Notes: generated by a model from the sequence alone, not told the origin. 32,000 nt of DNA from Xanthomonas campestris pv. campestris str. ATCC 33913 (GCF_000007145.1 NC_003902.1:1687436-1719435); one strand, 5' to 3'; shown: positions 643-26,674, counted from the first letter of the stretch. Numbers and translations are program-made.

Positions 643-778
643 AACGTGGGGATACCTTAGATCCGGAACCATCGTCGGCGTTGCTGATTTGGTTGACTGC
701 ATCGGCCCCTTCGACGCCACTGCCTGGCGCGCACACGCCGACAAACACTGTATTCCCATAGAGCGCGAAGAGCTGGCC

Positions 779-1258: not shown

Positions 1259-1277
1259 TACAGGGGATTTAGAAGAA

Positions 1278-3167: not shown

Positions 3168-3171
3168 GCAT

Positions 3172-8701: not shown

Positions 8702-8717
8702 GAGATTGATTGGATAA

Positions 8718-9018: not shown

Positions 9019-10536
9019 TAATTAGTCGCCCCTGAAAAACCCCCAATCACCCAACGCCCGCAAGGCCTTGATGTCTGCAGTGGCGTGCCAGAACTACCAG
9101 TTTTCGCTACGCTGAAGGCTGGTTTCTGGCAATTTCCACTCATGCATACACGCCGTCCTGCTGCCGAGCACATGCCTGCCGAGGAGTTGTTTCGTTCGCG
9201 CCTGGAGAACCAGATCGATCTGCGGCATCCGCTGGCGCAGCTGAGCCAACGGATGCCGTGGACGGCGTTGGAGCAAGCACTTTCATCGCGCTTGCCGGCC
9301 ACCCAGGCTGGTGGCGGTCGGCCGGCATTGCCGGTGCGGCTGATCGCCGGTTTGCTCTACCTCAAACACGCCTACGACCTGTCCGATGAGGCGGTGTGCG
9401 AGCGTTGGCTGGAAAATCCGTATTGGCAGTTTTTCACTGGCGAGGTCGTGTTCCAGACGCGCTTGCCGTGCGATGCCAGCTCGCTGACGCGCTGGCGTCA
9501 GCGGCTTGACGAAGCGGGGATGGAAGAGTTGCTGGCACACACCATCAACGCTGCACATGCCATGCAGGCGGTGGACGCACGCGAGTTGTCGCGGGTGATC
9601 GTGGACACCACGGTGCAGGAAAAGGCGATTGCCTATCCGACCGATAGTCGGTTGCTGGAGGTGGCACGCAAGAAACTGGTGCTGCTGGCCAAGCGTTACG
9701 GCATCGGGTTGCGGCAGAGCTACGCACGGCAAGGTCCGGCCCTGAGCCGCAAGGCGGGCCGCTATGCGCATGCACGCCAGTTCAAGCGCATGCAGCGCGT
9801 GCTGCGACGTCAACGCACGGTCTTGGGGCGGGTGTTGCGCGATATCGCGCGCAAGCTGGACCAGGTGGAACCCGGCGTGCGCGAGCGCATCGCGGTCTGG
9901 CTGGAACGTGCGCAACGGCTGTACACGCAGCGTCCGAAGGACAAACAAAAACTGTACGCATTGCATGCCCCGGAAGTGGAATGCATCGGTAAGGGCAAGG
10001 CGCGTCAAGCGTACGAATTCGGCGTCAAGGTCGGCATTGCGGTCACCGCCTGCAAGGGATTGGTCGTGGGTGCGCGTAGCTTCCCGGGCAACCCGTACGA
10101 CGGCGACACCTTGGCCGAGCAGCTGGAGCAGACACGCGGGTTGCTGCAGGATCTGAGCGTAGAACCGACGGTGGCGATCGTGGACCTGGGCTATCGCGGG
10201 CGCGAGGTCGATGGCGTGCAGGTGCTCCATCGTGGCAAGGCCAAGACGCTGACGCGACGGCAATGGCGCTGGATCAAACGACGGCAGGCGGTGGAACCGG
10301 TGATCGGACATCTGAAAGACGACTGCAGGTTGCGTCGCTGCAGGCTGAAAGGTGCACAAGGCGATGCGCTGCACGTACTCGGCTGCGCCGCCGGCTACAA
10401 CCTGCGCTGGCTGCTGCGCTGGATCGCGTTTTTGCGTGCCTGGATGCGGGCGATGGGATGGCCATCCTTTAGCGCCGTGCCGCTGTCGCCGATGACACTT
10501 GGTGCTTGAAGGGGGTTTTTCAGGGGCGACTAATTA
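9019..10536 (+). mobile_element. IS5-family insertion sequence, apparently intact
   Basis: Perfect terminal inverted repeats: ATTAGTCGCCCCTGAAAAACCCCC at 9021-9044, with its reverse complement at 10511-10534. The palindrome TAATTA at both ends (9019-9024, 10531-10536) could be an IR extension or a target duplication. Confidence 0.8.
9085..10509 (+). CDS. IS5-family DDE transposase
   Basis: 474-aa ORF filling the IR-bounded element. The real start may be the internal Met of MPAEELFRSRLENQIDLRHPL. Confidence 0.85.
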   Translation: MPELPVFATLKAGFWQFPLMHTRRPAAEHMPAEELFRSRLENQIDLRHPLAQLSQRMPWTALEQALSSRLPATQAGGGRPALPVRLIAGLLYLKHAYDLSDEAVCERWLENPYWQFFTGEVVFQTRLPCDASSLTRWRQRLDEAGMEELLAHTINAAHAMQAVDARELSRVIVDTTVQEKAIAYPTDSRLLEVARKKLVLLAKRYGIGLRQSYARQGPALSRKAGRYAHARQFKRMQRVLRRQRTVLGRVLRDIARKLDQVEPGVRERIAVWLERAQRLYTQRPKDKQKLYALHAPEVECIGKGKARQAYEFGVKVGIAVTACKGLVVGARSFPGNPYDGDTLAEQLEQTRGLLQDLSVEPTVAIVDLGYRGREVDGVQVLHRGKAKTLTRRQWRWIKRRQAVEPVIGHLKDDCRLRRCRLKGAQGDALHVLGCAAGYNLRWLLRWIAFLRAWMRAMGWPSFSAVPLSPMTLGA

Positions 10537-10599
10537 TTACAGCGCCTTAGACGAATCGGGAAAGAGACATTGACCTGCCCCCACCGGCCATACCAGTGA

Positions 10600-11475
10600 T
10601 TACTGATAAAGCCCGGGGTTGAAGGGTACTGCGTTGTTGCCGGTTTGTGCTCGGTGGTTGGAGGCAAACTGCGCTGGCGGGATGCGACCACAGCTGCTGT
10701 GCGGACGTACCTCGTTGAAGTCACGCCGCCAATCGGCGATGACCTCGCGAGCCTGGATCAGCGACGTGAACCAGTGTTCGTTGAGACATTCGTCGCGGAA
10801 CTTGCCGTTGAAGCTCTCGATGTAGCCGTTCTGCATGGGTTTGCCGGGTTCGATCAGGATGTGTTCGATGCCACGCTGCTGTGCCCAAGTGATGAAGGCG
10901 CGGCTGGTGAACTCCGGGCCGTTGTCCGTGCGCACCGCGCGGGGATAGCCGCGGAAGCAGGCGATCTGCTCCAGCACACGCACCACGTAAGCCCCGCTGA
11001 TACCATGGTCCACCGCGATGTCCACGCATTCATGGGTGAAGTCGTCGGCGACGGTCAGGCATTTGATGCGGCGGCCACTGGCCAACTGATCAAAGACGAA
11101 GTCCATGCTGATTACCTCGTTGGGATGCCGCGCTGGCCGTAACGGCTGCCGCTGTGCCGCCGGGAACTTGGCCTTCTTGCGCCGGCGCACGCTCAGCTTC
11201 GCCTCGCGGTACAGACGGTAGATCTTCTTATGGTTCACCTGCGGAAACTCCGGGCGCAGCAGGTCGTGCAGGCGGCGATAGCCGAAGCGGCGACGCGCCT
11301 GCGCCAGTTCCACCAGTCTGGCCGACAGGGTTTGCGTCGCCGGCGTGGGTGTCGGCGCGTGGCGGAAAGCATCGCGGGAGATCCCCGCAAGGCGACAAGC
11401 CCGGCGCTCGCTGATCGACGTCAGCTCGCACATGCGCCGGATTGCCTCGCGCTTGCGTTGCGGGGCTAGCGTTTT
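10600..11475 (-). CDS. IS3-family transposase OrfB (DDE integrase core), expressed as OrfAB by -1 frameshift
   Basis: rve-type core (ISMDFVFD ... [11 protein letters not shown] ... [14 protein letters not shown]). The -1 frame overlaps the orfA end at GGGGTAAAAC, with an A-AAA slippery site at 11472-11475. Confidence 0.85.
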
Positions 11476-11732
11476 ACCCCGAACCCGACCTTCAGCGCCT
11501 CGATGTCCAGGTGCGCCTCGGCCAGCAACCGCTTGAGGCGGTTGTTCTCCTGCTCCAGCTCCTTCAGGCGCTTCGCGTCTTCGGCCTCCATGCCGCCGTA
11601 CTTGGCCCGCCACTGGTAGAAGCTGGCCGGGCTGAAACCGTGCTGGCGGCACAGCTCAGCCACCGCCATCCCGGCATCCGCCTGCTTGATGAATCCGATG
11701 ATCTGCTCGGTGGTGAAACGACTCTTCTTCAT
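11466..11732 (-). CDS. IS3-family transposase OrfA (HTH)
   Basis: [47 protein letters not shown] is a typical IS3 OrfA, with a leucine-zipper-like end. Confidence 0.85.
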
Positions 11733-11795
11733 GTCCGTCCTCGTGGTTGACGGACTTTACAGCTTCACGTGGTACGGCTCAGCGGGGGCAGGTCA

Positions 11796-12064
11796 TCCCA
11801 GGCCAGTTGACCGTTCCGGAATATTATTGCTTCGAAATCATGAAGGCGCTCGACATCGAGGCCGATGATCAGATGAACTTTGTTCAATTTTTTATCGATT
11901 GGTCTAAGCGTTATGCGGTTAATCTCGAAAGATATGTCCCGGGAGAGGTTCTCAGCTCTGGAAGTCTAGATAACTCAATTGGCGTCAAATGGAAGGTCAC
12001 GTCAGCGGATGCTTCTTGTTCGAGATGGTGGACCAACTTCCAGCAGAATCAGTGCAGTCTATAA
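11796..12064 (+). other. Orphan open frame right of the IS3 element (possible remnant of the disrupted gene)
   Basis: Frame reading PGQLTVPEYYCFEIMKALDIEADDQMNFVQFFIDWSKRY begins exactly at the IS3 boundary. It has no start of its own outside the IS. Confidence 0.2.
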
Positions 12065-12075
12065 TGGATGGAACT

Positions 12076-12794
12076 ATGAAAGCCAAAGTAATCTTGTCCA
12101 TGGCGCTGCTTTCCTGCGCGCTTGCTGCCTGTGGAAAAGCCGACAAGCCAGCGGAAAACAGCGACTCACCAGCTTCCCAGACTGGGACTTCTTCGCCTGC
12201 AAAAGCTGATCACAGCGCAGCTGTGAATGGAGCGCAGCAGACGGCGAAGCTGCAACAGCCTAGCGGCGTGCAAGATGCCAAGCAGTATTTGTGTCAGGGC
12301 GGCGGAAGTGCTTGCAAGGCAAGTGGCCCTTTGGTTGCTAACTCAGATGCCGAGGCAAAGTGGCTTTTGTCTAATGGCTATCCGACTGAGGCCGAACTTG
12401 CACGATTGGACAAACTGACGTTGGATCAGTTGAAGGCAGAATCGCAGGCGGGCAATAAGGCCGCAACTGTCATTTATGGAAAGAAGACGGCAACGAGTGG
12501 CCACTTCCAGGAGGGGCTTGGCATTTTAAGGAATGCGGCATCTGCTGGAAACTTATACTCGTATTATGGATTGTCGGATATCTATGCCAGCGAGACTAAG
12601 GATAAAAATCTGATCTGATCGATAGTGCCGCATATCTGCGTTTGGCGTATCTGTTGGGAGACGGCAAAGCATCTACTGACATTGCTCTTCGAGGGTTGAG
12701 TAGCGTTGAGAGCGTTGCTGCCGATGAGCGTGCAGCTTCGCTTTACAAAACATTCTCTAAATATCAGCGTTCGTCTCCGAGACCTGTTGAGTAG
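12076..12794 (+). pseudogene. Sel1-repeat-like lipoprotein gene, frameshifted by a 5-bp tandem duplication
   Basis: Signal peptide plus lipobox MKAKVILSMALLSCALAAC. The frame stops at 12618 just after TGATC-TGATC (12611-12620). Removing one copy gives ...KNLIDSAAYLRLAYLLGDGKAS... continuing to the stop at 12792-12794. Confidence 0.6.
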
Positions 12795-12810
12795 AATTTA
12801 GCGGAAATAT

Positions 12811-12845
12811 AAAAATGAGGAGGCAAAGCCCTCCTCATTTTTTTG
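12811..12845. terminator. Bidirectional rho-independent terminator between convergent genes
   Basis: AAAAATGAGGAGG-caaagc-CCTCCTCATTTTTTT: perfect 9-bp stem flanked by an A-run and a T-run. Confidence 0.7.
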
Positions 12846-12864
12846 GGAAGTGTGAATCGCGTTG

Positions 12865-14155
12865 CTACTCACTTGTGCTGAGCTGACGCTCGTCAAGAAT
12901 GGCTTTGAGCATGTTGGCTGAGAGCAGCTCTCTGAACAATGTATAGAATTGCCAGGCACACCACAGTGCGAAGACAAAACCCAATAGTGATGCAGCTCTC
13001 TGCTTAGGCACCTCTTTTGCCAAATGCGATTTTAGAGCGGGATCCTGCCAAACTTGGCAGAGAATTTTAAGGTCTCGTGGGTCGAATGTAGGTGGGATGA
13101 CTTGTTTGTTGGCGGTGTTGCACTGTTCAACTGTCAAAGTGTCGCTTCTAACGGAGAAAAGCGTTTGGGTTCTTGCCTCAGTTTCAGAGGCAAAGATACT
13201 AGTGTGTGTTTCTTTCAAAGTCACTAACAAACTGTCGTTGGCGGCGATTGCACCAAGTATTGCGGCGAGAACAATAAGCACTGCAACAGCGATGAAGGGT
13301 AAAATCAGCCACCACTTAGAATGAACCCGCTTCGGGTGGATAACATGATTTTTGAGGTCAAAAGCCCATCCTGCATGTCCAATGAGTTTGAGCGGAATAT
13401 TGTGTAAGTCCGAAAATCCAATAAGCGCTTTTGCATCTTTTAGCGTTTGGACGCCGATCTGGTGTGCCATTCGAAACGCAGCCAAAGCAGAATGGTCTGC
13501 CAAATTCTTGCGAATGACTGTGTCTTCAATATCGTCTTTGCTGAGCCAGTCCTGCAAACTCTGCCTTTTTGCTCGCGTTGCTAGGATAGTGCTCGATGGC
13601 TTCCAAGAAGCTCCGCACATCATCGGCTTTATAATTTTCCACAGGCTTGTCACCGACCAACGCAACGAACAAGCCCAAGCTGTATTCGGTGTCGAAGATG
13701 TTGGTCGCACTTCGACCGACTCGTTTCATCTCGCGAATATGGATGGCTGCGCGTTCAGAAAATAACGGCCCAGCTTTCTTCGCCACTTCGGTGGAAGAGG
13801 GCAGCGGCAGATTTTTCAGCGCTTCGAGCAGCCGAGCATGATCCTCAGGTCCGTTGACAGAGAGCTCCACGCCACCCACCTTGATGGTGTAGGGCCGAGC
13901 TTCGTTTCCTTGCAATGCGGCCAAAGCCTGGCTCAGCAAATCGTCCTTCATGCTGCTTGCCCCCCGCCGCATCCGATCGAATGCTTCCGAGAGTGCCACA
14001 GCAGTTCGTGCTACGGCCAGACGGGCAGCATCACCAAGGGTCAAGCGAACTGGACGGACAAGGTAGCGCGAGCCAATGAGGGCTTGCAGGTCGGTCGGGA
14101 CGAAGAAGCGCACATAGAGCCCAGCAGGGCGGCGCAGAAAATAAGGCTTCGGCAC
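12865..14155 (-). pseudogene. Decayed tyrosine-integrase gene of the Zorya island. N-terminal and SAM-like parts only, frameshifted, with the C-terminus replaced by an unrelated two-TM segment.
   Basis: 13526-14155 encodes PKPYFLRRPAGLYVRFFVPTDLQ... (integrase N-terminal type). The frame switches near 13540-13550 into ORF 12865-13710. No R..HxxR..Y catalytic domain follows. Instead there are hydrophobic stretches WWLILPFIAVAVLIVLAAILGAIA and LLGFVFALWCAW. Confidence 0.6.
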
Positions 14156-14158
14156 GGG

Positions 14159-14208
14159 GTTTGATACCTCGTTTGATACCTAACGCAGGCTCAAACTGAA
14201 CATCAAAC
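14159..14208. promoter_or_regulatory. Cluster of four GTTTGA(T) motifs between the old att site and the decayed integrase (candidate arm-type or operator sites)
   Basis: GTTTGATACC at 14159 and 14171 (direct, 12-bp period). Inverted copies TCAAAC at 14191 and 14203 (12-bp period). Confidence 0.3.
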
Positions 14209-14261
14209 CCCGGGCCTAGCCTTCGCGAAATCAAGCACTTACTGCTCTTTTTCGCGATCAG

Positions 14262-14295
14262 ATGGTGGAGGTGGGCGGAATCGAACCGCCGTCCG
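14262..14295 (-). repeat. att repeat: 34-bp duplicate of the ssrA 3' end (T-arm and acceptor 3' strand, CCA)
   Basis: ATGGTGGAGGTGGGCGGAATCGAACCGCCGTCCG is identical to 23465-23498. Confidence 0.85.
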
Positions 14296-14395
14296 AAGGC
14301 GCTAAATAGCGTTCGCTATCGTCCGTCGCTGTACTTTAAGCCACTGATTCTAAAGAAATACTATTCGCTGCCGTCCACTGGTGTTCGTCACGGTG

Positions 14396-14415
14396 TATCC
14401 GTACCATATCCGTAC
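14396..14415 (+). promoter_or_regulatory. Two direct TATCCGTAC repeats (candidate arm-type integrase binding sites, attR side)
   Basis: TATCCGTAC at 14396 and 14407 (11-bp period), about 100 bp inside the att core. The same motif recurs at the opposite end of the element (23388, 23401). Confidence 0.35.
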
Positions 14416-14439
14416 GGACCAGGTGAGCGATTAAAGCTG

Positions 14440-15588
14440 ATGGCTAGATACGATATCGACAAGGCAACAGTTCGCGCGCGCCTTGATCCACGGCGTGAAC
14501 CCTATTGGGGGGCGCCAGTGGAGCGCGGCCTATATGTTGGGTTTCGTCGCCTTGCTCAAGGTGGCAGCTGGGTGGCCCGCTACCACAAGGAAGACCGAAC
14601 CCACGCCTATAAATCGCTGGGGCCAGTCACTGCGGAGAACGACCACGAGAATGCAAAGCGTGAGGCTAGGATATGGCGCAAAACAATTGACGCCGGTGTT
14701 CAGGCAGATCGCCTTCTGACGGTCGCCGACGTGTGCCGTGATTACACCGCAGCCATAGAGGCCGAGGGCCGAACGCGCGCAGCAATCGACGCACGTAAGA
14801 GGTTTGACAGAATTGTCTATGTCGATCCAATTGGAAAACTGCGCGCCGACAAGCTGACGCAGCGGCACTTAGAAGCCTGGATGACGCGAATGGAGGCGGG
14901 CGAAATGACTGGGCGCAAAAAGGCGCTGCCATCGCGCGCGACGTTCAATCGAAACCTCACTGCACTGAAGGCGGCTCTAAATCGATCCGTGGCGCGCAGA
15001 GAGATTCCGCAAGAGCGCGTAATAGAGTGGCAGTCGATAAAACCACATAAGGGGGCTAGTGGTAGGCGAGATACGTATCTCGACAAGGCGCAGCGGCGTG
15101 CGCTGCTGGATGCCATGGGGACAGACCTTCGTGCTCTAGCCGAGTGTGTCGCACTGACCGGCTGCCGCCCTGGTGATCCTGTTGCCATGAGGCGCAAGGA
15201 TTGGGATTCGAAAAACGGACTCGCCACGTTCGCCACAAAAACGGGTGCAAGGACGGTGCCCGTTTCACCGGCTGCGCGAGCGCTATTCGATAGATTAGCG
15301 ACGGACAAGCAAGGGGATGCCTGGATGTTCACAAATGAAGGTGAGCATTGGACACCGCAGGCGTGGGCGCCAAAGGTAAAAGCGGCGGCGGCGGCGGCAG
15401 GTCTCCCGACTGGCGTTGTCTTATATGTGCTTAGACACGCCTGGATAACGGACGCGATCATTGGAGGTCTGGACGCTGTAACCGTCGCGCGCCTAACAGG
15501 AACTTCACTCGAAATGATTTCGCAGCACTATGGGCACCTGGCGCAACACGCTGCGAGGGAAATGCTTGGGAAGATCGATTTTTTATAA
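14440..15588 (+). CDS. int: Tyrosine recombinase / phage-type integrase (intact)
   Basis: 382 aa. Catalytic signatures LTGCRPGD (Arg), LRHAWITDAI (HxxR) and SQHYGHL (Tyr). Adjacent to the att repeat. Confidence 0.9.
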   Translation: MARYDIDKATVRARLDPRREPYWGAPVERGLYVGFRRLAQGGSWVARYHKEDRTHAYKSLGPVTAENDHENAKREARIWRKTIDAGVQADRLLTVADVCRDYTAAIEAEGRTRAAIDARKRFDRIVYVDPIGKLRADKLTQRHLEAWMTRMEAGEMTGRKKALPSRATFNRNLTALKAALNRSVARREIPQERVIEWQSIKPHKGASGRRDTYLDKAQRRALLDAMGTDLRALAECVALTGCRPGDPVAMRRKDWDSKNGLATFATKTGARTVPVSPAARALFDRLATDKQGDAWMFTNEGEHWTPQAWAPKVKAAAAAAGLPTGVVLYVLRHAWITDAIIGGLDAVTVARLTGTSLEMISQHYGHLAQHAAREMLGKIDFL

Positions 15589-15789
15589 AATTCGTTGCCG
15601 GCAATAGAACGAAGTGGATTTATAAGCGGGATGATCGGGATTTCGACATCACGGAAAGTAAGGATTTATCCCAAACGTGAACACTTCAACACTTCTCGCG
15701 AGTAATTCTTTGGTGTTCAATACGCTTGTCCGCACGGTTGCGGACGGGTGGAGCCATAAGCGGCCCACCATAGACAAACCAGGTGGGAA

Positions 15790-15978
15790 ATGTCCGAAAA
15801 AATCTGTTTGAATGTCCGCGAAGCTTGCGCCGCGTTAAGTATCGGCAGAAGCACTTTTTATCAGTTGGCGGGTTCCGGTCGCCTGAGTCTAATTAAGCTC
15901 GGGAAGAAGACCCTTGTTGCTCGCACGGAGCTTGATCGATTCGTGGCGGCGTGCGCTCAGGAGAGCCGCGCCCAGTGA
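15790..15978 (+). CDS. Excisionase-family / MerR-type HTH DNA-binding protein
   Basis: 62 aa. LNVREACAALSIGRSTFYQLAGSGRLSLIKLGKKTLVARTELDRFV matches the excisionase-type HTH pattern. It lies downstream of int. Confidence 0.7.
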   Translation: MSEKICLNVREACAALSIGRSTFYQLAGSGRLSLIKLGKKTLVARTELDRFVAACAQESRAQ

Positions 15979-16043
15979 GCACCCAAAAAAAACGCCACGG
16001 GGCCAGCCGTGGCGCTCTGATCAAACCGAACCGCAAAGTTCAC

Positions 16044-16355
16044 ATGCAGCATGGCAACTGCAGCGCATTTTTTTCAGGCTCAGAATTTCCGCCAGAAGTT
16101 TGGCGGGCGTCAGCTGCCTATAGCCTCTCCCAAGCCTCGCGCGCGCGCGACGTACAGCAGCTTAAGTATTACTTACGACATTGGGTCATCCGGCAAGCCT
16201 TCGCCATGCGCGGCGTCCATTCCAACTGGCCGGACTACGCCTGGGCTGTATTTGATTCAGCGGTTACCGCAAGCGGCCTACGTGTGCGATTTCGGCGCAG
16301 TGACGTCCGGACGGTTTGCCATACGGCTGATCGCATCGCGCGCGGTGAAGGCTGA
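16044..16355 (+). CDS. Hypothetical protein preceding the primase gene
   Basis: Open frame 15951-16355. The ATG at 16044 avoids overlap with the upstream gene. It ends 3 bp before the primase start. Confidence 0.3.
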   Translation: MQHGNCSAFFSGSEFPPEVWRASAAYSLSQASRARDVQQLKYYLRHWVIRQAFAMRGVHSNWPDYAWAVFDSAVTASGLRVRFRRSDVRTVCHTADRIARGEG

Positions 16356-16358
16356 CCG

Positions 16359-19300
16359 ATGCTCCGCTTTGCTGACTTTGTCTCGGCGCGCTGGCCGACG
16401 CCGGAAGACGCTCTTTTTGAATTCTTCGCCGACGCTCAGGCTGCGGCGCTGGAAGTCGGAGCGCAGCTGACCGAACTGCCGGACCTGGACGGCGTTAGGC
16501 GCTACCTGCCCAGCCAGTCCGGCAAGCGCGATAAGCGGCAGTTCCACGTCGCCAGCGTCACCACCGACCCCGATGGCACTTCCTGGCCGGCGATTACGTT
16601 CAAGTCGTTTAAACATGGCGGCGCTTCGCATTATTGGAAGCCACGTGACCTGGCCTGGAATATTTTCCTGCGCGACGGTCGTGAAGACATTGGCGCAGAT
16701 ACCGCACGTGTGGCCGCCTACGCCGAGCGTGCGCGGCTGGCGAAGGAGCAGGAGCAGGCGCGAGCCGTAGAGCGGGACGCTACTGACCAGCTTGGCCGCG
16801 TCGCCGCTGCCGATGCGGCGCGTATTGCCTGGGACGCGGCTTCGCTTGACTGCGGTGCGCATGCCTATCTGTTGCGCAAAGGCGTCGCGGCATACGGGCT
16901 GCGCGTCGCGACCACGACCATGCGCGCACGGTTGTGGGACGCCGAGCGGGCGCGGTGGATCGATGATGCGATTGTCGTGCGCGTTGGCGATCTGTTGGTG
17001 CCTGTGCGCCTGCCGGACGGGCAGCTGGTCAATGTCCAACGCATTGACGCAACTGGCCGAAAGCTATTTCTTCGCGGCGGTCAGAAACGCGCAACGCATT
17101 TCCGAATCCAAGGCACCGGCCCTGCGTGGCTGTGCGAAGGCTACGCCACCGGCGCCAGCGTGCACGCGGCGACGGGTGCTCCCGTTGTCGTTGCATTCGA
17201 TGCCGGCAACCTGATTCACTGCGCCAGTCTGGCCGACGCAGTTGCAGCTGATAATGACGCCAGCGGCACCGGCCAGCGTGCCGCAGAGACGACTGGCCTG
17301 CCGTGGGCATGCCCCGCTGCCGTGGGCGACGATTTCAACGACCTACACCAACGCCAGGGCATCGACGCCGTACGCGCTGCCCTGATGAACCTGCGCCAGC
17401 CGCCACTGCCCGAAGCGCCCGCATACGTTCGGCCGTTCGAGCTACCTGCGGCGGATGTCCCGCCGGGCCGTGCCGACGCCCTGCGCGTCCTTGGGCGCAT
17501 CCCTGACGCTGCCGATGCTGCGGCCTTCGCGTGGGCATTGGCTAAACGCCTGTCGATGGGCATCCCGGCGCGCGGTGAGAGCATCGAATCAATTTCAAAG
17601 ACGCTGCGCGACGCGCTCCCCAGTTCGATCCTGGCCGGCGCCACCATCGACGCAATCGCTGGCGGTATCCGCTGGATTATCGACCGGCGCCGAGCCGGTG
17701 CGCTGGCGGCCGTGCGGCCGTCTGCTGCCATCCTGGCGCGCCACACCGTCGAGCGGCGCGACAGCCTGCCGATGCTGGGCGGGGCTGACTACAGCGGCGT
17801 GATCGTGCTGCGCGCGCCTATGGGTAGCGGAAAGACGCAGAAAATCGGCCTGCCCTTTGCTTCATGGGCCAGCCAGCAGGATGGGCGCTTCGTTGCCTTG
17901 GCACACCGACAGTCACTGATCGCGGAACTATCGGCGCGGCTGGGGTGTGCCCACTACCAACGAATCGATGGTGAGGACGCAGTGCACGTTGACGCACTTG
18001 CGGCGTGTCTACCGTCTATCGTCAAGGCCGATCATGCGCAAATCTACCGCGAAGCGCGGTGGGTGTTCATCGACGAAATCAGCCAGGTCGTGCGCAGTCT
18101 GGCCGCGCGCGTTACGGTGGCTGACCGCAAGCAAATGTCGGACGTGCTCGCCGCGCTGCGCGAACTTGTGTCACGGGCTGACTGTGTGATCGTGGCTGAT
18201 GCAGGGATCGATGATCGAACCATCGAATTCATTGAATCCTGCCGCCCCGGCGAGCGCTTCCGCGTGATCGATGCCGACATTGCGCCATCGCAGGCGCAGG
18301 AAGCGGAATTCGGTTTCGGGCCGGAAGCGCTACACCACGCTTACGGCGACATGCTCGCCGAACTAGCTGACGGTCGCCGGCTGTGGGCTGCGTGCGGTGA
18401 GAAGTCCCGTGCGATTGAATGCGCGCGACTCCTGGAGACAGGAGGCCGGCGCGTGTTGCTGGTTACTTCTGATAACTCTGGTAACAGGGAACAGGCAGAA
18501 TTTCTGGCCGCGCCGGATCGCATGAGTCGCCTTTACGATGCTGTTGTGGCCTCACCGGTGATTTCCTCGGGGGTCTCGATCGAACACCGCGAATTCGGAC
18601 CGTGGTTCAACCGCGTGTTCATGCTTGCGTCCGGCGCTACAGTGACACCAGCGGACGCATTACAGATGGCACGTCGGGTGCGGTATGCGCCATCCCTTTC
18701 GGTGGTGGTCACAGCTTCGAATCGCTCAGAAATCGATTCCGCCGATGCAATACTGTCCGGCCTGTCTGAGGCCGCGTCCCTGGAAGGTCGCGCACCGACG
18801 CCGACCGACCTGGATGGACTTGTGGCCGACATCGAAGCAGGAGACGCCCGGCAGCGTGCCGACTTCGCGGGCGGGCTGTGGTGGCTGCTGGAGGCCGCTG
18901 GATGGGACGTGAAGCCGATGCTGGTCGGCGATAGCGCGGTGTCCGCCGAGTCGATGAAACTGCTGCGCGCCGACATCGACCGCGAACAGCGCGACTCACT
19001 GCTGGCTGCGCGTGACTTGACCGACTTCGAAGCGCGAAGACTGCGTGAGCGGCCGGCGTTGAGCGAGGCTGACCAGGCGGCGCTGCTGCGTCATCGGATC
19101 GTGCGCGACCTGGGGTTGCAGGAAGCGCTGTGCGACGCCGACCTAGACGATTGGGATGCAGGGCGCGGGCCGCGTGCATGGGACAGGTGGACGGCTGCTA
19201 TCGCAGGCACCGCTGACGCCGCAACTGATGGCGGGGTGACCGATCTTCACCGGCTGCGGTTCGGCCGTGCTCGGGTGCTGGCGTATCGGGAACTATTTGA

Positions 19301-19922
19301 TGGGTTCAAGTTGGCGCCGGGATTCCGCATCACTTCGGAAGTTTCGGCGGTGCTGCTGGGCCGCATGTACGGGCGGCGGCAGTTGTTGGCGGTGCTGGGG
19401 CTGGTGCCGGCCAAATGGGCTGGGGATCGGTTTGGCCTTCCGGCCGGTAACGCAGCCACTCGGGCGGTTACCGATCTGTTCGAGCGCATGGGTCTGAAAC
19501 TGATCCGAGCGCGCAACAACCGAAAGGCCAAAATGGGTGCCAAAAGTGGCATAGAAACCTTAGGTTGTTACATGGGTTTTGGCACCCATCGGGGCATCGT
19601 CGATGTCATGACCTGGTACGTCGTCGATTCCGATTCATGGTCCCGAACGGCCGAGCTTGCTGCACGCCGGAATTCCCGACGCGTGCTGGATGCGGTCCCG
19701 CGCGAGTCTTCTGACGACCGCTACTGGCACGCCGTGCGGCGCGACATCATGGCGCGGGCAATGCCCGCCGATGAGGCCGCTCGCCTGATCCTGGCAAAGT
19801 GCCGAGCGCAACAGGACGGGGGCAACCAGCGGGACAGCAGCGGGCGTACATACGGGGCAAGAGTCGCGGTGACTTGGCTGCGATGGGTCTATGCGCCTGA
19901 GTGGCAGCGATGCGCGGCCTGA
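16359..19922 (+). CDS. Replication protein: Toprim-domain primase fused to a P-loop NTPase/helicase, with a long C-terminal extension
   Basis: Toprim Glu in WLCEGYATG (~17133) and DxD in AADNDASGTG (~17249). Walker A APMGSGKTQK (~17815). Walker B VFIDEISQ (~18063). Confidence 0.8.
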   Translation: MLRFADFVSARWPTPEDALFEFFADAQAAALEVGAQLTELPDLDGVRRYLPSQSGKRDKRQFHVASVTTDPDGTSWPAITFKSFKHGGASHYWKPRDLAWNIFLRDGREDIGADTARVAAYAERARLAKEQEQARAVERDATDQLGRVAAADAARIAWDAASLDCGAHAYLLRKGVAAYGLRVATTTMRARLWDAERARWIDDAIVVRVGDLLVPVRLPDGQLVNVQRIDATGRKLFLRGGQKRATHFRIQGTGPAWLCEGYATGASVHAATGAPVVVAFDAGNLIHCASLADAVAADNDASGTGQRAAETTGLPWACPAAVGDDFNDLHQRQGIDAVRAALMNLRQPPLPEAPAYVRPFELPAADVPPGRADALRVLGRIPDAADAAAFAWALAKRLSMGIPARGESIESISKTLRDALPSSILAGATIDAIAGGIRWIIDRRRAGALAAVRPSAAILARHTVERRDSLPMLGGADYSGVIVLRAPMGSGKTQKIGLPFASWASQQDGRFVALAHRQSLIAELSARLGCAHYQRIDGEDAVHVDALAACLPSIVKADHAQIYREARWVFIDEISQVVRSLAARVTVADRKQMSDVLAALRELVSRADCVIVADAGIDDRTIEFIESCRPGERFRVIDADIAPSQAQEAEFGFGPEALHHAYGDMLAELADGRRLWAACGEKSRAIECARLLETGGRRVLLVTSDNSGNREQAEFLAAPDRMSRLYDAVVASPVISSGVSIEHREFGPWFNRVFMLASGATVTPADALQMARRVRYAPSLSVVVTASNRSEIDSADAILSGLSEAASLEGRAPTPTDLDGLVADIEAGDARQRADFAGGLWWLLEAAGWDVKPMLVGDSAVSAESMKLLRADIDREQRDSLLAARDLTDFEARRLRERPALSEADQAALLRHRIVRDLGLQEALCDADLDDWDAGRGPRAWDRWTAAIAGTADAATDGGVTDLHRLRFGRARVLAYRELFDGFKLAPGFRITSEVSAVLLGRMYGRRQLLAVLGLVPAKWAGDRFGLPAGNAATRAVTDLFERMGLKLIRARNNRKAKMGAKSGIETLGCYMGFGTHRGIVDVMTWYVVDSDSWSRTAELAARRNSRRVLDAVPRESSDDRYWHAVRRDIMARAMPADEAARLILAKCRAQQDGGNQRDSSGRTYGARVAVTWLRWVYAPEWQRCAA

Positions 19923-20332
19923 GCTAGATTCAAAGAACTGGCTTAAGTCTCAGGCCGCAATGGAGTCTTAGAAATGGATTCTTCCGCATTTACGGTAAAG
20001 ATTGTTCCGGATATTGCAGCAGGACAGCTTTTTTATATGGCTGGTGGCTGGTGGCTCAAAGCGGTAACAGCAGGGGGCGCGCCAGTGCATGGTGCGATGT
20101 GTGTCGTCGGTCCCCGCCAGGGCAGCTGGTTCAGTGCCCGCAGGACATGGCCCCGCCACTGAAGCGCGGCGATAGGGCATCGATCCTGGCGAACCACGTG
20201 CAGGCAGCGGAGACATACCAGGCGTGCCGTGGTCCGCATAACGCGCTGGTGCAGACGGTGTGCCGGCAGCAGGGTGTGACCATCAACGGTGGGCCAGCCT
20301 CGTCGCTCCCTGAATGTAGGGATGCACTGAAT

Positions 20333-20431
20333 GTTAAGAAGTAGTTAAGAAAGCGTTACGATTTAGTTAATCTGAATGAGATGTTAAGGCAGCGTGAAGG
20401 CAAACGTTAACAAATCGTTAAGATTTTTAAG
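20333..20431 (+). repeat. Iteron-like array of GTTAA(G) motifs in an AT-rich gap (candidate replication origin)
   Basis: Motif starts at 20333, 20344, 20355 (GTTAC variant), 20366, 20383, 20406, 20417 and 20426 (TTTAAG variant). Four of the seven spacings are exactly 11 bp. Confidence 0.5.
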
Positions 20432-20481
20432 GTACTCCTGAAGGGGGTGCGGCAGGGCGGGTCACCTGACACCCCGACAAA

Positions 20482-20787
20482 TCAAATCTGCGTGGCTTTC
20501 CAAAACCGGTTTTCTGCTTCTACCCATTCCGTTTCGAAATAGCTAAAAACACTTGGATTTAAGCGTGGAATACGTGACGCATTACACCGCCCGGTGTAAA
20601 AGCGAATAAAACGCGCGAGGACCACCACCGCCACACCGCCCACCTGTTGGGCCACCGCAGGCCATGCCGCGAAGCCAATCGGTCCGATTTGCGCAACAGC
20701 ACCGCCGATGCCGCCATTCGATGCTCTGCCAAGCGCATTTAGCTGAACGCTGCGAACCATCCGGTGCACATGTTCAAGCACGCTCAT
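20482..20787 (-). CDS. Hypothetical small hydrophobic protein
   Basis: 101-aa ORF with the hydrophobic stretch GAVAQIGPIGFAAWPAVAQQVGGVAVVVLARF. Divergent from the 20906 gene. Weak support. Confidence 0.25.
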   Translation of the reverse strand: MSVLEHVHRMVRSVQLNALGRASNGGIGGAVAQIGPIGFAAWPAVAQQVGGVAVVVLARFIRFYTGRCNASRIPRLNPSVFSYFETEWVEAENRFWKATQI

Positions 20788-20905
20788 TCACCGGACATCA
20801 CGGCGGCCAACGCGTGCGTGAATGCGGAAATTCCGGACATGGAACGTCTGTTTCCGGTGTCTGAAGATAGTCGTCAACGCAGCGGCATTTCGCCGTTTCG
20901 ATCTG

Positions 20906-21886
20906 ATGAGAACCGCAAAACAACATATGCCAAATCTTGACCTCTCCGCACTTATCGAAGAAGCGCGCAACGCTGCAGGTGTAAACACCAGAACACCGGC
21001 TGGTTTCGATGCCCCCACGAGAATCACGCCAGAAACCCTACAGCGCTTCGGTCAGCTGGCGCTAGACCAGCCTGTATCGAATTTGGCTTCATTTTTCGAC
21101 GCGAACGGTCGCCTGCGCCGTGTCCCACCTTCGCGCGAGGCAGTCACGTACGCTGACGTGAAGCCGCTGGAAATCGCACGTGCCACCTCGCGCTGCGCCG
21201 CTGCTGGCGCACATCTCCTCCTCCGCGAAGATGCTATCGCGGCGAGGGCGCACAACGGCATTCCGGTATTCCAGCGCGAGGTGTCCGGCTTCAGTCTCGT
21301 CGAGCCGGCCCGCCTGGTTCCATCGGCAGATGGCGCAGCGATCCCGGCCACTGTTGGCATGCCGATCAAAACGGCATCCGTTGACTGGTCCGACCAGGAC
21401 ACCGCGCAGATTCACGCAATCCGGTTTGAGATTTCACGGGCGCAACTGCGCAAGTATCGCGACGAAGGCAACCTGACGGCCATCATCACCGCCAGCATTC
21501 TCGCCGGTGTGGGTCAGATGGCCGACGCGGTTCTGCTGCGCGCACTGGCTGCTGCGAACCTGGCGAACTTCACCATCGGCGCAGCCGCAGCGGCCGGCTT
21601 GAGCCACACCGCCCTGCGCGGCCTGGTGGGCACCGCCGGTGCCGGCGCCACCATCGCGGATGACGGCGGGCTGCGGGCGGCGCGTGTGCTGGCCGAACTG
21701 ACCGACGCCACCGAATCGACGTTCGTCGGTGCGTGGGCCAACGCAGCCGTGCTGCTTGACCGCAGCGTTAGCGTAGTTGCCGAGCGAGCTGGATCGGTGA
21801 TGGATGGCGGCATGGTATTGACCGTGCTGGGCAGCGCGGTGGCTCTGGTTCCTGACCAAAGTAAATTCTGGAAGGTGGCCGCCTAA
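20906..21886 (+). CDS. Phage major-capsid-like protein (HK97-fold-like, tentative)
   Basis: The C-terminal two thirds resemble the HK97-type MCP pattern as I remember it (IRFEISRAQLRKYRDEGNLTAIITASILAGVGQMADAVLLRAL ... TFVGAWANAAVLLDRSVSVVAER ... ALVPDQSKFWKV). The start is uncertain (20822, 20906 or 20927). Confidence 0.45.
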   Translation: MRTAKQHMPNLDLSALIEEARNAAGVNTRTPAGFDAPTRITPETLQRFGQLALDQPVSNLASFFDANGRLRRVPPSREAVTYADVKPLEIARATSRCAAAGAHLLLREDAIAARAHNGIPVFQREVSGFSLVEPARLVPSADGAAIPATVGMPIKTASVDWSDQDTAQIHAIRFEISRAQLRKYRDEGNLTAIITASILAGVGQMADAVLLRALAAANLANFTIGAAAAAGLSHTALRGLVGTAGAGATIADDGGLRAARVLAELTDATESTFVGAWANAAVLLDRSVSVVAERAGSVMDGGMVLTVLGSAVALVPDQSKFWKVAA

Positions 21887-22263
21887 TGGCCGCCTTCGTT
21901 TCGCACGCCAAGGGCAATGCCTCAGTCCTGCTGGGCGCGTTACAGGCTGTGCAGGACGGCTCGGCCTATCGCCTTTCCGACGATGAAAAGCAGCAGCGCG
22001 TGGCGGTGCAAGTGGCTCGCCTTGGCTCCTTGATTCTGCGGTACGACAGACAGGAAGAAGCGATTTCGCGCATTCGCCGTGCCTGGCCCGAGTTAAACGC
22101 CGAAGAGGCCAGCCGCGTACTGGCTGAACTCTTCGCTGTCATGCGCGAGACGCTCAGCCAGCCTGAGCGCGATGTCGCATCACGCAGGGAGCAGGCTGCG
22201 CGCCAGTCAAGCAACTGGGTTCACAGCTGGACCCGGCGCGATCACGACGGGGGTATCCGATGA
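21886..22263 (+). CDS. Hypothetical protein, translationally coupled to the capsid-like gene
   Basis: TAATG stop/start overlap at 21884-21888. 125-aa ORF. Confidence 0.5.
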   Translation: MAAFVSHAKGNASVLLGALQAVQDGSAYRLSDDEKQQRVAVQVARLGSLILRYDRQEEAISRIRRAWPELNAEEASRVLAELFAVMRETLSQPERDVASRREQAARQSSNWVHSWTRRDHDGGIR

Positions 22264-22511
22264 TTACGGATATCGCCATCGCCGCCCTGATGATCGCGCA
22301 GCAGCCTGGGATTTTTCCAGCGTACGTGCGAGCGAGGTTTGCCGGCGCGGCGCCAATGCCTGCGCAAGAGATTGCGCCAACGCCAACGCCAACGCCAACG
22401 CCGAAGCAGGCACGCCGCCAGTCCGCTGCGCAGACCAAGCGAAAAATGCAAAGCAGGCCAGGAATGCAGCGCATCTGCGGCGGAAACGGATTTCTCGGGC
22501 GGCTGCGTTAG
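22260..22511 (+). CDS. Hypothetical protein with a (Thr-Pro)4 repeat
   Basis: ATGA overlap with the upstream stop at 22260-22263. The hexanucleotide repeat reads APTPTPTPTPK in this frame. The competing frame 22172-22996 cannot be excluded. Confidence 0.4.
   Translation: MITDIAIAALMIAQQPGIFPAYVRARFAGAAPMPAQEIAPTPTPTPTPKQARRQSAAQTKRKMQSRPGMQRICGGNGFLGRLR
22376..22402. repeat. Hexanucleotide tandem repeat (GCCAAC)x4 plus a partial unit
   Basis: Read directly: gccaac gccaac gccaac gccaac gcc. Confidence 0.9.
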
Positions 22512-22513
22512 GC

Positions 22514-22996
22514 GTGGCACTCAATCCCGTCGAGAGGCCGGCAGGCTGGTTCCTGCTGCCGGCTTCGGTGCAAGAAGTCGCCGAAGTGATCGGCCTGCCC
22601 GATGCCATGCGGCTTGCCGGCGCTTTCTGCCCGGCGTCTGGCGGCCCGCGTCGTGCCAGCCATTCAGGACGCGCGGGGCGCATTTATATCCCGCAACGCC
22701 CGAACGGCGACACATTCAAACGCATTGCCGACCTGGTAGGCCGGGACGCTGCGGCACGGCTGGTCGATGTTCTCGGCGGGAATCAAGTTGCATTCCCGCC
22801 GTGCACGGCATTCACGAACCGCATCCGTGATGAATCCGTGCGCAAAGCCTGGCGCGACGGCACGCTATCGGCACCGTGGATTGGCTGGCTGCATGACATC
22901 ACCGAAAGACAGGTTCGCAACATCACCCAAGGTGAGCCGCGACCCGCATTCGATGCGGCCGGCCGTCCACTCAGCAAAAACAGGCCGCCCCTATGA
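22514..22996 (+). CDS. Mor-family-like transcriptional activator (C-terminal HTH)
   Basis: RIYIPQRPNGDTFKRIADLVGRDAAARLVDVLGGNQVAFPP...RIRDESVRKAW...LHDITERQVRNI resembles phage Mu Mor/C-type regulators. The GTG at 22514 lies 2 bp after the upstream stop. The alternative start is 22172. Confidence 0.5.
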   Translation: MALNPVERPAGWFLLPASVQEVAEVIGLPDAMRLAGAFCPASGGPRRASHSGRAGRIYIPQRPNGDTFKRIADLVGRDAAARLVDVLGGNQVAFPPCTAFTNRIRDESVRKAWRDGTLSAPWIGWLHDITERQVRNITQGEPRPAFDAAGRPLSKNRPPL

Positions 22997-23232
22997 CGAA
23001 CAATGACCCTCGCGCATCCCGCCTCATAAATTCGGAGGCCACCGCCTGCCTGGTGGGCATCGCCTTGAACACCTTGGCCGCACTCGTGCGCGAAGGCGAC
23101 TTTCCTGCGCCTATCCGGCTTGGGCCGCGCGCGACGTTCTACGACCGTGACGCCGTGAGGGCCTGGCTGGACTACCAGCGAGACGCGCGCGGCACGGTTC
23201 GCCGCTCGCCTGGCAGGCGCAGTGCTGCGTGA
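22993..23232 (+). CDS. AlpA-family phage/island transcriptional regulator (HTH)
   Basis: ATGA overlap with the upstream stop. LINSEATACLVGIALNTLAALVREGDFPAPIRLGPRATFYDRDAVRAWL matches the AlpA pattern (...FP.P..lg.r...W....v..W). Confidence 0.7.
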   Translation: MTNNDPRASRLINSEATACLVGIALNTLAALVREGDFPAPIRLGPRATFYDRDAVRAWLDYQRDARGTVRRSPGRRSAA

Positions 23233-23432
23233 TCGTTATCCGCATCGTGACCCGCGCCGATGCGATCCGGCTGGGTCTGTCGCGCTACCTCACGGGCAAA
23301 CCATGTAAACGCGGCCATATCGCCGAACGGCGCACAAGGCAGGGCGACTGCACGGAGTGCGCGGCGGCCCAAGTAATGCCAAAGCCGTATCCGTACAACG
23401 ATCCGTACAACGTACGACAGTGCACACCATGA
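23229..23432 (+). CDS. Small Cys-containing phage-associated protein (YLTGKPCKRGH...CTEC motif)
   Basis: GTGA overlap with the upstream stop. 67 aa. The C-x3-H ... C-x2-C arrangement suggests a zinc-ribbon-like fold. Its C-terminus is encoded by the TATCCGTAC repeats. Confidence 0.45.
   Translation: MIVIRIVTRADAIRLGLSRYLTGKPCKRGHIAERRTRQGDCTECAAAQVMPKPYPYNDPYNVRQCTP
23388..23408 (+). promoter_or_regulatory. Two direct (T)ATCCGTAC repeats (candidate arm-type integrase sites, attL side)
   Basis: TATCCGTAC at 23388 and ATCCGTAC at 23401, 57-77 bp from the att core. Same orientation as the pair at 14396/14407. Confidence 0.35.
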
Positions 23433-23433
23433 A

Positions 23434-23462
23434 TAAAAAAACCCCTGATAAATCAGGGGTTT
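23434..23462 (-). terminator. Rho-independent terminator of ssrA (lies in element-derived DNA)
   Basis: On the minus strand just after the CCA end: ACCCCTGA-tttа-like 4-nt loop-TCAGGGGT, an 8-bp stem at 23441-23460, followed by T7 (A-run 23434-23440 on the plus strand). Confidence 0.65.
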
Positions 23463-23464
23463 GA

Positions 23465-23498
23465 ATGGTGGAGGTGGGCGGAATCGAACCGCCGTCCG
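23465..23498 (-). repeat. att repeat within the functional ssrA 3' end
   Basis: Identical to 14262-14295. Confidence 0.85.
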
Positions 23499-23862
23499 GA
23501 AGCACTCCATCCCCAGCACTACATGCTTATCCCTCCGTTAGATCTCGTTCCCAGGCAGCACGGCGGGCAAAGCGCACCTGAAAACCAGCCTGCTTGATCT
23601 AACCGATAGCTGACAGGCAGCCACTACCGGCGGTTCCGTGATAATGACCCTACATCTACGAGCACGGGCACAAGTAGTTTCGGGGGTTCGCCTTAGGCGG
23701 CTGTAGAACTACAACTAAAGCCAATTAAGCGGCGATAGCGAAGTCCGAACCGTAGTTGTCGTCGTTGGCAACTAAAAGTTTGCTGCTGGATTAACGAGGA
23801 AAGCTGCCCCCTCGGCATGCGCCAAGCGACTTCGCGACCCCCGTCGAAACCAGTGCACCCCC
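23466..23862 (-). ncRNA. ssrA: tmRNA (transfer-messenger RNA)
   Basis: The reverse complement starts GGGGGUGCACUGGUUUCGACGGGGG and ends GGUUCGAUUCCGCCCACCUCCACCA. The acceptor stem has a G3:U pair. The tag reading frame at 23769-23725 encodes ANDDNYGSDFAIAA followed by a stop. Confidence 0.9.
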
Positions 23863-26455: not shown

Positions 26456-26674
26456 TTCGGGAGTCGGGATTGGGGATTCGCAAACGCGGTGGTTGGCTGA
26501 ACAAAAACGGCCGCGATGCAGGTTGCAGCCCGAAGGCTGGCTAAGAGCGGTCGCGTCACATGGCGTGGCGGGATCGCACGGCCTCAAAGCAGCCCAAACC
26601 ATCGCAACTTGCGGTCTCAGCAAATGCTCAGCTCAAGCAGCCCCGTTCTTGCGAATCCCGAATCCCGATTCCCG
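26454..26674. repeat. Inverted heptamer-repeat arms flanking a ~165-bp spacer (MITE-like or long-hairpin element) between convergent genes
   Basis: 26457-26483 CGGGAGTCGGGATTGGGGATTCGCAA versus the reverse complement of 26649-26674, CGGGAATCGGGATTCGGGATTCGCAA (24/26 identical). Each arm is made of GATTCGG/GATTGGG-type heptamers. Confidence 0.6.

Follow-up and report, generated by a model that had tools for sequence, protein, structure and literature searches.

A type I Zorya island and a probable cos-type phage satellite in tandem at the tmRNA gene of Xanthomonas campestris pv. campestris

Tandem integration of islands at ssrA, the gene for transfer-messenger RNA (tmRNA), is a textbook phenomenon. 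The Islander paper, which cites 'Traffic at the tmRNA gene' (Williams 2003), catalogued 125 tandem arrays and found the tmRNA gene to be the most enriched target (PMC4383910). We describe such an array in a 32,000-nucleotide (nt) stretch of chromosome from Xanthomonas campestris pv. campestris (Xcc) ATCC 33913 (NC_003902.1:1687436-1719435; hereafter, the window, to whose first letter all positions refer), in which an island of ~15 kb carrying a Zorya defence operon and a separate element of 9.2 kb are stacked at the 3′ end of ssrA. As an array it is ordinary. The tandem islands described with Islander and TIGER likewise show an intact target gene, displaced direct 3′ fragments and a separate integrase for each unit, and there is no difference in principle, although the two cores here are of unequal length (13 and 34 bp) and the integrases lie on opposite sides of their cores. 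The likely explanation of the locus as a whole is that a Zorya island and a phage satellite of the cohesive-end (cos) type have been stacked at ssrA.

Several described satellites resemble the 9.2-kb element in part. SaPIbov5 carries its helper's cos instead of a terminase gene, and its HK97-fold protein Ccm redirects capsid size (Carpena et al. 2016, PMC5052747). EcCICFT073, a phage-inducible chromosomal island (PICI) of Gram-negative bacteria, has the order int-alpA-pri/rep, lacks terS, and is packaged at cos by the helper terminase (Fillol-Salom et al. 2018, PMC6092414). The element shares with SaPIbov5 a helper-type cos (predicted here) and an HK97-fold protein (modelled here), but differs from it in host phylum, in the lack of a detectable sequence relation to Ccm, in having regulators of the AlpA and Mor types rather than Stl, in the strictly lytic nature of its candidate helper, and in size (9.2 kb as against ~14 kb). 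With the Gram-negative PICIs it shares the succession of int, alpA and pri/rep in one direction, the lack of terS and, as predicted here, a helper-type cos for packaging; whereas EcCICFT073 has no capsid gene and temperate lambdoid helpers, a capsid-fold gene and an activator of the Mor type are present in the element. P4 combines an integrase and a primase-helicase with the cos of its helper, P2, and its Delta protein is a transactivator homologous to the P2 late activator Ogr. The Mor-like protein of the element is paired with a Mor-like phage protein much as Delta is with Ogr, but the primase-helicase of the element, in contrast to that of P4, is of the N15 RepA type.

In Xanthomonas, SatelliteFinder has reported only capsid-forming PICIs (cfPICIs) (PMC10085698). 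XVR20 of Xcc strain 8004, a 24.6-kb variable region that was described as a recent acquisition missing from 18 Chinese strains (He et al. 2007, PMC2246292), overlaps the present region by coordinates; the paper that describes it makes no mention of the tmRNA gene, of two elements, of Zorya or of a satellite. In a literature search, we found no description of the 9.2-kb element as a satellite.

A candidate cos-type satellite beside ssrA

The original prediction, which had been made from the DNA of the window, proposed a discrete element of ~9.2 kb with its own intact integrase. Such an element was found: a tyrosine integrase of 382 amino acids (aa; 14440-15588) lies within an interval bounded by 34-bp repeats (Table 1), which is present in many Xcc genomes at 94-99.9% identity. 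Its genes follow the order of a PICI, with the integrase gene starting at 14440, an alpA-like gene at 15790 and the primase-helicase gene at 16359, all on the plus strand, in a length slightly under the usual 10-15 kb. An open reading frame (ORF) of 126 aa separates the alpA-like gene from the primase-helicase gene, which is followed by a gap of 1 kb and an ORF of 319-354 aa. Matches of the primase-helicase by tblastn include N15 repA and the primase/helicase of phage M29, to which its primase domain is 34% identical. The motif ATCCGTAC has four copies in the whole window, where 0.28 would be expected, and they form one pair at either end of the element (the second at 23389-23408).

Scans with Pfam and PHROG models identified no terminase, portal, tail or complete lysis gene in the element, yet it has one capsid-fold gene and a fragment of a spanin gene; the 125-aa and 83-aa proteins had no match to either set. 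The same scans found no homologue of Sid, Psu, Delta or Epsilon among the element's proteins, which places it outside the P4-like class, for which SatelliteFinder takes int, alpA, alpha, epsilon, delta, sid and psu as the core. Nor does it belong with the cfPICIs: it has a capsid-fold gene only, with no portal, prohead protease, connectors or terS, and the ~1.5 kb that is left is too little for more structural genes.

The link to a particular group of phages is provided by ~400 bp that follow the primase-helicase gene. In a nucleotide search of 50,697 phage genomes, the sole matching stretch was 20106-20292 (85-96% identity), and the eight matched records represent five phages (three entries being duplicates), FoX1, FoX2, FoX3, Murka and M29, all of them Foxunavirus phages of Xcc. 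Sensitive alignment extended the relation to 20110-20516, which is collinear with the right end of Foxunavirus genomes and, beyond the join, with their left end, from spanin to terS. The first part (20110-20292) is the counterpart of the 3′ portion of the gene that ends the phage lysis cassette; 20425-20516 is that of the final ~47 bp and the initial ~57 bp of the phage genomes, a position just upstream of terS. The genome ends of the FoX phages have been determined experimentally (PMC9151335), and in the records of FoX2 and Murka 13 and 15 nt, respectively, are found at both ends, which fits cohesive ends written twice. In the element, the region reads GTCACCTGACACCCC and then GACAAATCAAATCTGCGTGGCTTT, and the 24-nt box is the same in every allele of the element as in Murka and FoX2. 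The element, which has no terS, thus carries at 20425-20516 a homologue of joined Foxunavirus ends that is predicted to act as cos, together with which the spanin fragment was probably carried in.

Three alleles of this region exist in Xcc: that of the window, with a diverged middle; one that is contiguous over 398 bp at 89-93% identity (L009 type); and one that retains the junction only (L023 type). Because the junction is the constant part of all three, it is the part under selection. The cos box had no match in IMG/VR. Thirteen metagenome matches to a 19-mer had nothing else in common with the element or the phages, and were set aside as chance matches. A 101-aa ORF that is annotated in many Xcc genomes (20482-20787, minus strand) runs antisense over the predicted cos region; it has no family match and is probably not a gene.

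A second point of contact with the same phages is the Mor-family protein, which over 80% of its length shares 34% identity with the late transcriptional activator of Foxunavirus. A further link, to phages in general, concerns fold rather than sequence. The 319-aa protein had no match in Pfam, PHROGs, the sequences of the Protein Data Bank (PDB) or the 50,697 phage genomes, and a single-sequence search of IMG/VR found no relative. Its AlphaFold2 model, based on an alignment of 19 sequences (pLDDT 79.6, pTM 0.75), gave 188 Foldseek matches in the PDB and 195 in BFVD at E ≤ 0.001. The top 50 listed from each are without exception HK97-fold shell proteins, mostly major capsid proteins of phages with just a few encapsulins, and include chains from the procapsid structures of P4 (7jw1) and SaPIbov5 (7rwz). 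Like the capsid homologue of a cos-type SaPI, the protein therefore has an HK97 fold, as modelled; it shows no sequence relation to the capsid protein of the candidate helper.

A profile search of the full library assembled 284 cluster representatives in the capsid-like family. Members of ~500 aa (P0274, P0289, P0303 and P0312), about one-tenth of those listed, have an N-terminal S78 prohead protease domain that scores above the Pfam cut-off. These fusions of protease and capsid domains are evidence of an independent kind, from sequence, for a family made up of capsid proteins. The capsid gene of Foxunavirus is annotated with the same layout.

Sibling elements with other integrases were found elsewhere. 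One in X. arboricola (9.46 kb) is bounded by a 28-bp repeat of tRNA-Phe and has an integrase of another type but the same gene order: integrase, HTH_17 protein, 126-aa ORF, 1187-aa primase-helicase, gap, 319-aa capsid-like protein, 115-aa ORF, Mor-like protein and AlpA-like protein. A similar element in X. euvesicatoria lies at another locus and has a P4-type integrase, and a Methylobacter genome encodes an integrase, AlpA, a D5-type primase-helicase, a capsid-like protein and small ORFs. The Xanthomonas siblings have no homology to the Foxunavirus cos, as would be expected if each were matched to a helper of its own. Elements of compact, conserved layout, whose integrase and replication modules can be exchanged and which have no terminase, portal or tail genes, look like satellites and not like decaying prophages. 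In X. euvesicatoria CM002866.1 (L079 1361-12500), a sibling stands back to back with an integrase of the DUF6538 type, a pairing like that of the elements at ssrA; the sibling is bounded by a 14-bp repeat, TGGCGGAGAGAGTG, at which ARAGORN found no tRNA.

On the combined evidence of sequence and model, the 9.2-kb element is, in our assessment, more probably than otherwise a cos-type phage satellite. Infection by a Foxunavirus-like myophage would lead to excision of the element by its integrase and AlpA-type proteins and to replication by its own primase-helicase; the helper terminase would then cut and package concatemers of the element at the cos copied from the phage. The Mor-type activator may couple the element to the late programme of the phage, and the HK97-fold protein could join or redirect capsid assembly, as does Ccm of SaPIbov5. 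The circular form would be 9,203 bp, so that five copies would amount to 46.0 kb and four to 36.8 kb, in comparison with helper genomes of 44.0-44.8 kb; multimers in heads of full size and monomers in small heads are both conceivable. We also incline, by a narrower measure of confidence, to a broader proposal: that the element and its siblings at tRNA genes make up an undescribed satellite family in Xanthomonas and other Gammaproteobacteria, the Xcc member of which parasitises strictly lytic Foxunavirus phages by means of cos, a copy of the late-activator type and a Ccm-like capsid protein, with continuing exchange of cos.

Several observations count against the satellite interpretation. The cos junction of the window allele is only 81-86% identical to those of known phages, and the predicted cohesive-end bases differ (GTCACCTGACACCCC as against GGTCACCTGAACC or GTCGCATGACACCGC), so that the terminases of known FoX phages may not cut the element. 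The spanin fragment could be a recombination scar. The profile of the capsid-like family gave no significant match to the capsid-protease protein of Murka (1.8 bits), and no trace of the element was found in IMG/VR. Finally, all Xcc copies occupy the same site and are nearly identical, so that they give no sign of recent movement.

Phage-derived DNA that includes a truncated spanin gene, accompanied by a capsid-fold gene and a homologue of a late activator, is also what a decayed prophage might leave behind, in which case the element would be the stump of a temperate relative of Foxunavirus, and its cos region, spanin fragment, capsid-like gene and Mor gene would be leftovers. We consider such an origin unlikely, since the genes of the element are all intact in many Xcc genomes, and in a diverged variant (94-97%) as well; the compact order of 9.2-9.6 kb recurs with other integrases and at other sites in other species and in Methylobacter; no remnant of a terminase, portal or tail gene is present; and the capsid-like protein is unrelated in sequence to that of Foxunavirus. 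A rather improbable alternative is an integrative, self-replicating island independent of phages, which acquired its cos-like segment through incidental recombination with an infecting phage. With an integrase and a primase-helicase, the element is indeed equipped to integrate and replicate alone; it encodes no packaging enzymes, and its similarity to phages is limited to ~400 bp. An incidental origin fits poorly, however, with the retention of the cos junction by all three alleles while the adjoining part of the spanin gene is variable or missing, and the element also has a capsid-fold gene and a late activator of phage type.

Layout of the array and order of arrival

Outward from the 3′ end of ssrA, the array consists of the tmRNA gene, the 9.2-kb element, a 34-bp displaced end, the ~15-kb Zorya island, a 13-bp displaced end and the native flank; that this represents two islands in tandem at ssrA is close to certain. 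By ARAGORN and Rfam alike, the tmRNA gene is complete, occupies 23466-23862 of the minus strand (tag peptide ANDDNYGSDFAIAA; full-length match to RF00023, 195 bits) and stands intact at one end of the array. The 34-bp direct repeat on which the original prediction was founded, ATGGTGGAGGTGGGCGGAATCGAACCGCCGTCCG, occurs in exactly two copies in the window, 14262-14295 and 23465-23498, both on the plus strand, where 100 shuffled sequences led us to expect none. From the span of the tmRNA gene, the right-hand copy consists of its final 33 nt plus one base and thus lies, as predicted, in the functional gene. The partial similarity that was said to continue past the repeat is present but weak (five of eight bases); farther out the flanks are unrelated, which excludes a segmental duplication as the source of the 34-mers. 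As in other arrays of this kind, displaced 3′ fragments in the same orientation mark the far end of each unit (34 bp for one, 13 bp for the other), and there is one tyrosine integrase per unit (382 aa and intact in the first; in the second, a stump of 203 codons here and 508-510 aa elsewhere).

The left end of the Zorya island lies outside the window. The window is 99.96-99.99% identical to Xcc chromosome CP155931.1, and the same locus is present in strain 8004 (CP000050). A further copy of the 34-mer had been expected to mark this end; a third repeat does mark it, but as a 13-mer, TGGTGGAGGTGGG (the final 13 nt of tmRNA), which is present as a single copy of the same orientation, with the last core gene on one side and the ASCH gene on the other (position 7573 of locus L024, 1,151 bp to the left of the window start, and position 8932 of L017). 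No locus that shows the left end of the island contains a third copy of the 34-mer with seven or fewer mismatches.

Comparison with relatives, in which ssrA was found to be empty or differently occupied, bears on how the array was built. Three states of the gene were found in public genomes: empty, occupied by a Zorya-type island only, and occupied by both elements. In Xanthomonas sp. NCPPB 1068 (L063) the site is unoccupied, and directly behind the tmRNA gene come a terminator hairpin and then the genes for a 54-aa, an 83-aa and a CHASE3-GAF-GGDEF protein. About 33 bp beside the tmRNA end of this strain (GGCCTTGGTCGGTCGTCTTAGGACCGTGGTG) equal the DNA to the left of the 13-mer in Xcc, and the 13-mer is therefore the original, displaced tmRNA end. 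Island-only sites, in which a 508-510-aa integrase gene stands beside an intact tmRNA gene without the 9.2-kb element, were found in X. arboricola, X. cucurbitae, X. axonopodis and three X. campestris assemblies (L054, L056, L058 and L060-L062), so that the comparison proposed in the original prediction yielded an empty site in one strain and singly occupied sites in four species. There, integrase and tmRNA genes are separated by 110 bp that equal 14152-14261 of the window save for one to four base changes; in Xcc, the same island junction is followed by the 34-bp core and then by DNA of the 9.2-kb element. These junctions show that each element was inserted by a tyrosine integrase that recombined the tmRNA-like core of a circular form with the 3′ end of ssrA, whereby the gene was rebuilt and the old 3′ end pushed outward.

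The Zorya island very probably came first, the 9.2-kb element then being inserted between the island and the tmRNA gene. This is the simplest history because the island-only state is widespread, an element-only state was not seen among the genomes examined, and the island is the more decayed of the two. The original prediction that two elements had used the same attachment site in turn holds in that both lie at the 3′ end of ssrA; their cores overlap but differ (13 and 34 bp), and the order proposed is one of parsimony. The topology of the array is silent on this point. If the 9.2-kb element had arrived first and a Zorya-type island had later entered its displaced 34-bp fragment, logic dictates that the final map would be identical. 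We hold that reversed order to be very unlikely, given that the island-tmRNA junction occurs on its own, with no 9.2-kb element, in X. campestris, X. arboricola, X. cucurbitae and X. axonopodis, that no genome was seen with the element alone at ssrA, and that decay is more advanced in the island. It is all but certain that the 34-bp repeat is an attachment core, and neither a coincidental match nor a piece of a segmental duplication, since no match is expected by chance, identity ends at 34 bp between unrelated flanks, and the same junctions recur across many genomes.

Base composition is graded along the array: 54.1% GC in the Zorya island without its insertion sequence (IS) elements, 61.6% in the 9.2-kb element and 66.0% in the core DNA to the right. 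The step that had been noted between element and core is thus real, though gradual, with the Zorya island lowest.

The geometry of the integrase of the 9.2-kb element with respect to its target is a family trait. A scan of the genome collection with the single integrase sequence gave no match; relatives were found by scanning with an alignment of homologues. These are 50-84% identical and come from Lysobacter, Luteimonas, Pseudoxanthomonas and other genera of Xanthomonadales type. The closest have a tmRNA 3′ fragment ~150 bp upstream of the integrase gene, followed by a conserved AAGGCNCT, and more distant ones have a tRNA-Val fragment in that position and an intact tRNA-Val gene 7-10 kb downstream; the same arrangement is thus kept at either gene. 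Their cargo is not shared with the 9.2-kb element. Among these relatives (L027-L053), the target switches between the tmRNA gene and tRNA-Val(CAC) while the geometry is unchanged, and the displaced tmRNA fragments show compensatory T-stem changes that track the tmRNA of the host. In Xcc 8004 (L011 1-310), an IS5-type element abuts window position 14298, two to three bases from the inner edge of the repeat, as a result of which the integrase of that strain is annotated with a false 435-aa N-terminal extension.

The Zorya island, its family and other features

The four genes of the Zorya operon, zorA, zorB, zorC (EH signature) and zorD (SNF2 helicase), match the PADLOC models end to end, as befits a type I system; the Pfam domains of the operon are OmpA/MotB_plug, EH_Signature and SNF2. 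A decayed second integrase had been predicted to the left of 14262, and the gene found there (13547-14155, minus strand) is truncated and without its catalytic domain: 194 of 204 residues are identical to the N-terminal part of an X. arboricola integrase of 510 aa, whose residues 287-437, the catalytic domain, have no counterpart in the stump. An integrase of 508-510 aa is intact in other Xcc strains and in other species. The truncation is due to a clean deletion of ~7.5 kb (window 13544/13547 corresponding to 1561/9108 of L001), which cut the integrase gene, removed the gene for a MobA/MobL relaxase, and fused the stump to the DUF6216 gene. With its integrase cut to 203 codons, its relaxase deleted and three IS insertions, the Zorya island of this strain is immobile.

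Comparison of genomes showed that this island belongs to a family of mobilisable islands that occupies ssrA across Xanthomonas. Its traits are the 510-aa integrase, the MobA/MobL relaxase, DUF6216 and an exchangeable defence cargo, the last consisting of an enzyme of MmeI type in X. arboricola, an AAA_13 ATPase in X. cucurbitae, DUF7380/EMARD_N proteins in some Xcc, and type I Zorya here. In islands in which DUF6216 abuts an Amidase_3 gene (L005 700-900, L054 940-1130), no distal repeat derived from tmRNA was found, and the flank differs from that of the empty site. No degenerate tmRNA fragment that might have formed the border of a third, older island was found between 11796 and 12865.

Strain-specific deletions affect the array in three loci (L002, L013 and L023), at least one of them beside an IS. 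One extends over 1913-12881, from inside zorA to DUF6216, and another over 1139-20540, so that the Zorya genes, the two integrases and the primase-helicase are gone. An IS within zorC is joined, in L023, to the 126-aa ORF of the 9.2-kb element.

The core genes to the right of the tmRNA gene encode, in order, an S8 peptidase, smpB, ratA, rnfH, bamE, fur, recN and hrcA-grpE-dnaK. Between the S8 peptidase gene and smpB lies an inverted repeat of 26 nt (26458-26483 and 26649-26674; 92% complementary), rich in GGGATT/AATCCC.

Table 1. Coordinates of the features of the ssrA array in the window
Feature	Position	Strand	Evidence
IS end (404-aa DDE_Tnp_1 transposase in L024), inserted in ASCH gene	1-591		homology to IS-free strains begins 592-660; genes of L024-L026 compared with those of L017
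ASCH-domain gene, 3′ part, first gene of Zorya island	592-1258	+	PF04266; equals L017 9265-9981
Type I Zorya operon, four intact genes	1278-8701	+	PADLOC, Pfam
zorA	1278-3167	+	PADLOC ZorA1, 1100 bits
zorB	3172-3888	+	PADLOC ZorB1, 306 bits
zorC	3876-5507	+	PADLOC ZorC1, 593 bits
zorD	5504-8701	+	PADLOC ZorD1, 1243 bits
IS5/IS1182-type IS, perfect 26-bp inverted repeats	9019-10536	+	DUF772, DDE_Tnp_1; absent in L003, L007, L010
IS3-family IS	10570-11795	-	rve, rve_3, HTH_21; presence varies by strain
DUF6216 gene, distal gene in full-length islands	12865-13557	-	PF19723, 163 bits
Integrase remnant, residues 1-203 of 510-aa tyrosine integrase	13547-14155	-	homology
Integrase-side arm of Zorya-type island	14152-14261		abuts intact tmRNA gene in island-only genomes
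Displaced copy of tmRNA 3′ end, junction between both elements	14262-14295	+	repeat search
9.2-kb element, 9,169 bp (9,203 bp including one core copy), genes all on + strand	14296-23464	+	bounded by 34-bp repeats
Two ATCCGTAC motifs, candidate arm-type integrase sites	14397-14415	+	motif search
Intact tyrosine integrase, 382 aa	14440-15588	+	PF00589, phrog_1
AlpA/HTH_17-type small DNA-binding protein	15790-15978	+	phrog_66, phrog_7338, PF12728
Primase-helicase, 1187 aa, N15 RepA type, intact	16359-19922	+	phrog_4913, 286 bits; phrog_2249, 170 bits
o-spanin-like gene fragment without 5′ part	20110-20292	+	84-96% nt identity to FoX1-3, Murka, M29
Predicted cos site, homologue of joined Foxunavirus genome ends	20425-20516	+	81-86% identity across right/left junction
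HK97-fold capsid-like protein (modelled), 319 aa; long ORF from 20822	20927-21886	+	AlphaFold model, Foldseek
Two small genes, 125 aa and 83 aa; first overlaps capsid-like stop codon	21886-22511	+	conserved in sibling elements
Mor-family late transcriptional activator homologue	22514-22996	+	phrog_836, 73 bits
Second AlpA/excisionase-like gene	22993-23232	+	PHROGs
67-aa phrog_1081 protein	23229-23432	+	PHROGs
Terminator-like hairpin, element DNA, now downstream of ssrA	23439-23462	-	
Intact ssrA (tmRNA gene)	23466-23862	-	ARAGORN, Rfam

Implications for Xanthomonas and its phages

The array adds a documented example of traffic at ssrA in which empty, singly occupied and doubly occupied states can be compared, and it shows a family of mobilisable islands exchanging defence cargo at a single site. 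What the analysis adds is a probable new kind of cos-type satellite, the element proximal to the tmRNA gene, which would be matched to lytic Foxunavirus phages. Very few systems are known in which a satellite exploits a virulent phage, and a 2026 review notes that almost nothing is known of satellites in agricultural bacteria (PMC13486102).

The FoX and Murka phages are under development or test against black rot of brassicas. If the satellite interpretation is true, a widespread element of the chromosome with the packaging site of these phages could cut phage yield, spread in their particles, or explain gaps in their host range. The ssrA locus of Xcc would then be a double anti-phage station, consisting of satellite and Zorya, and could influence the success of biocontrol with phages of the FoX type.

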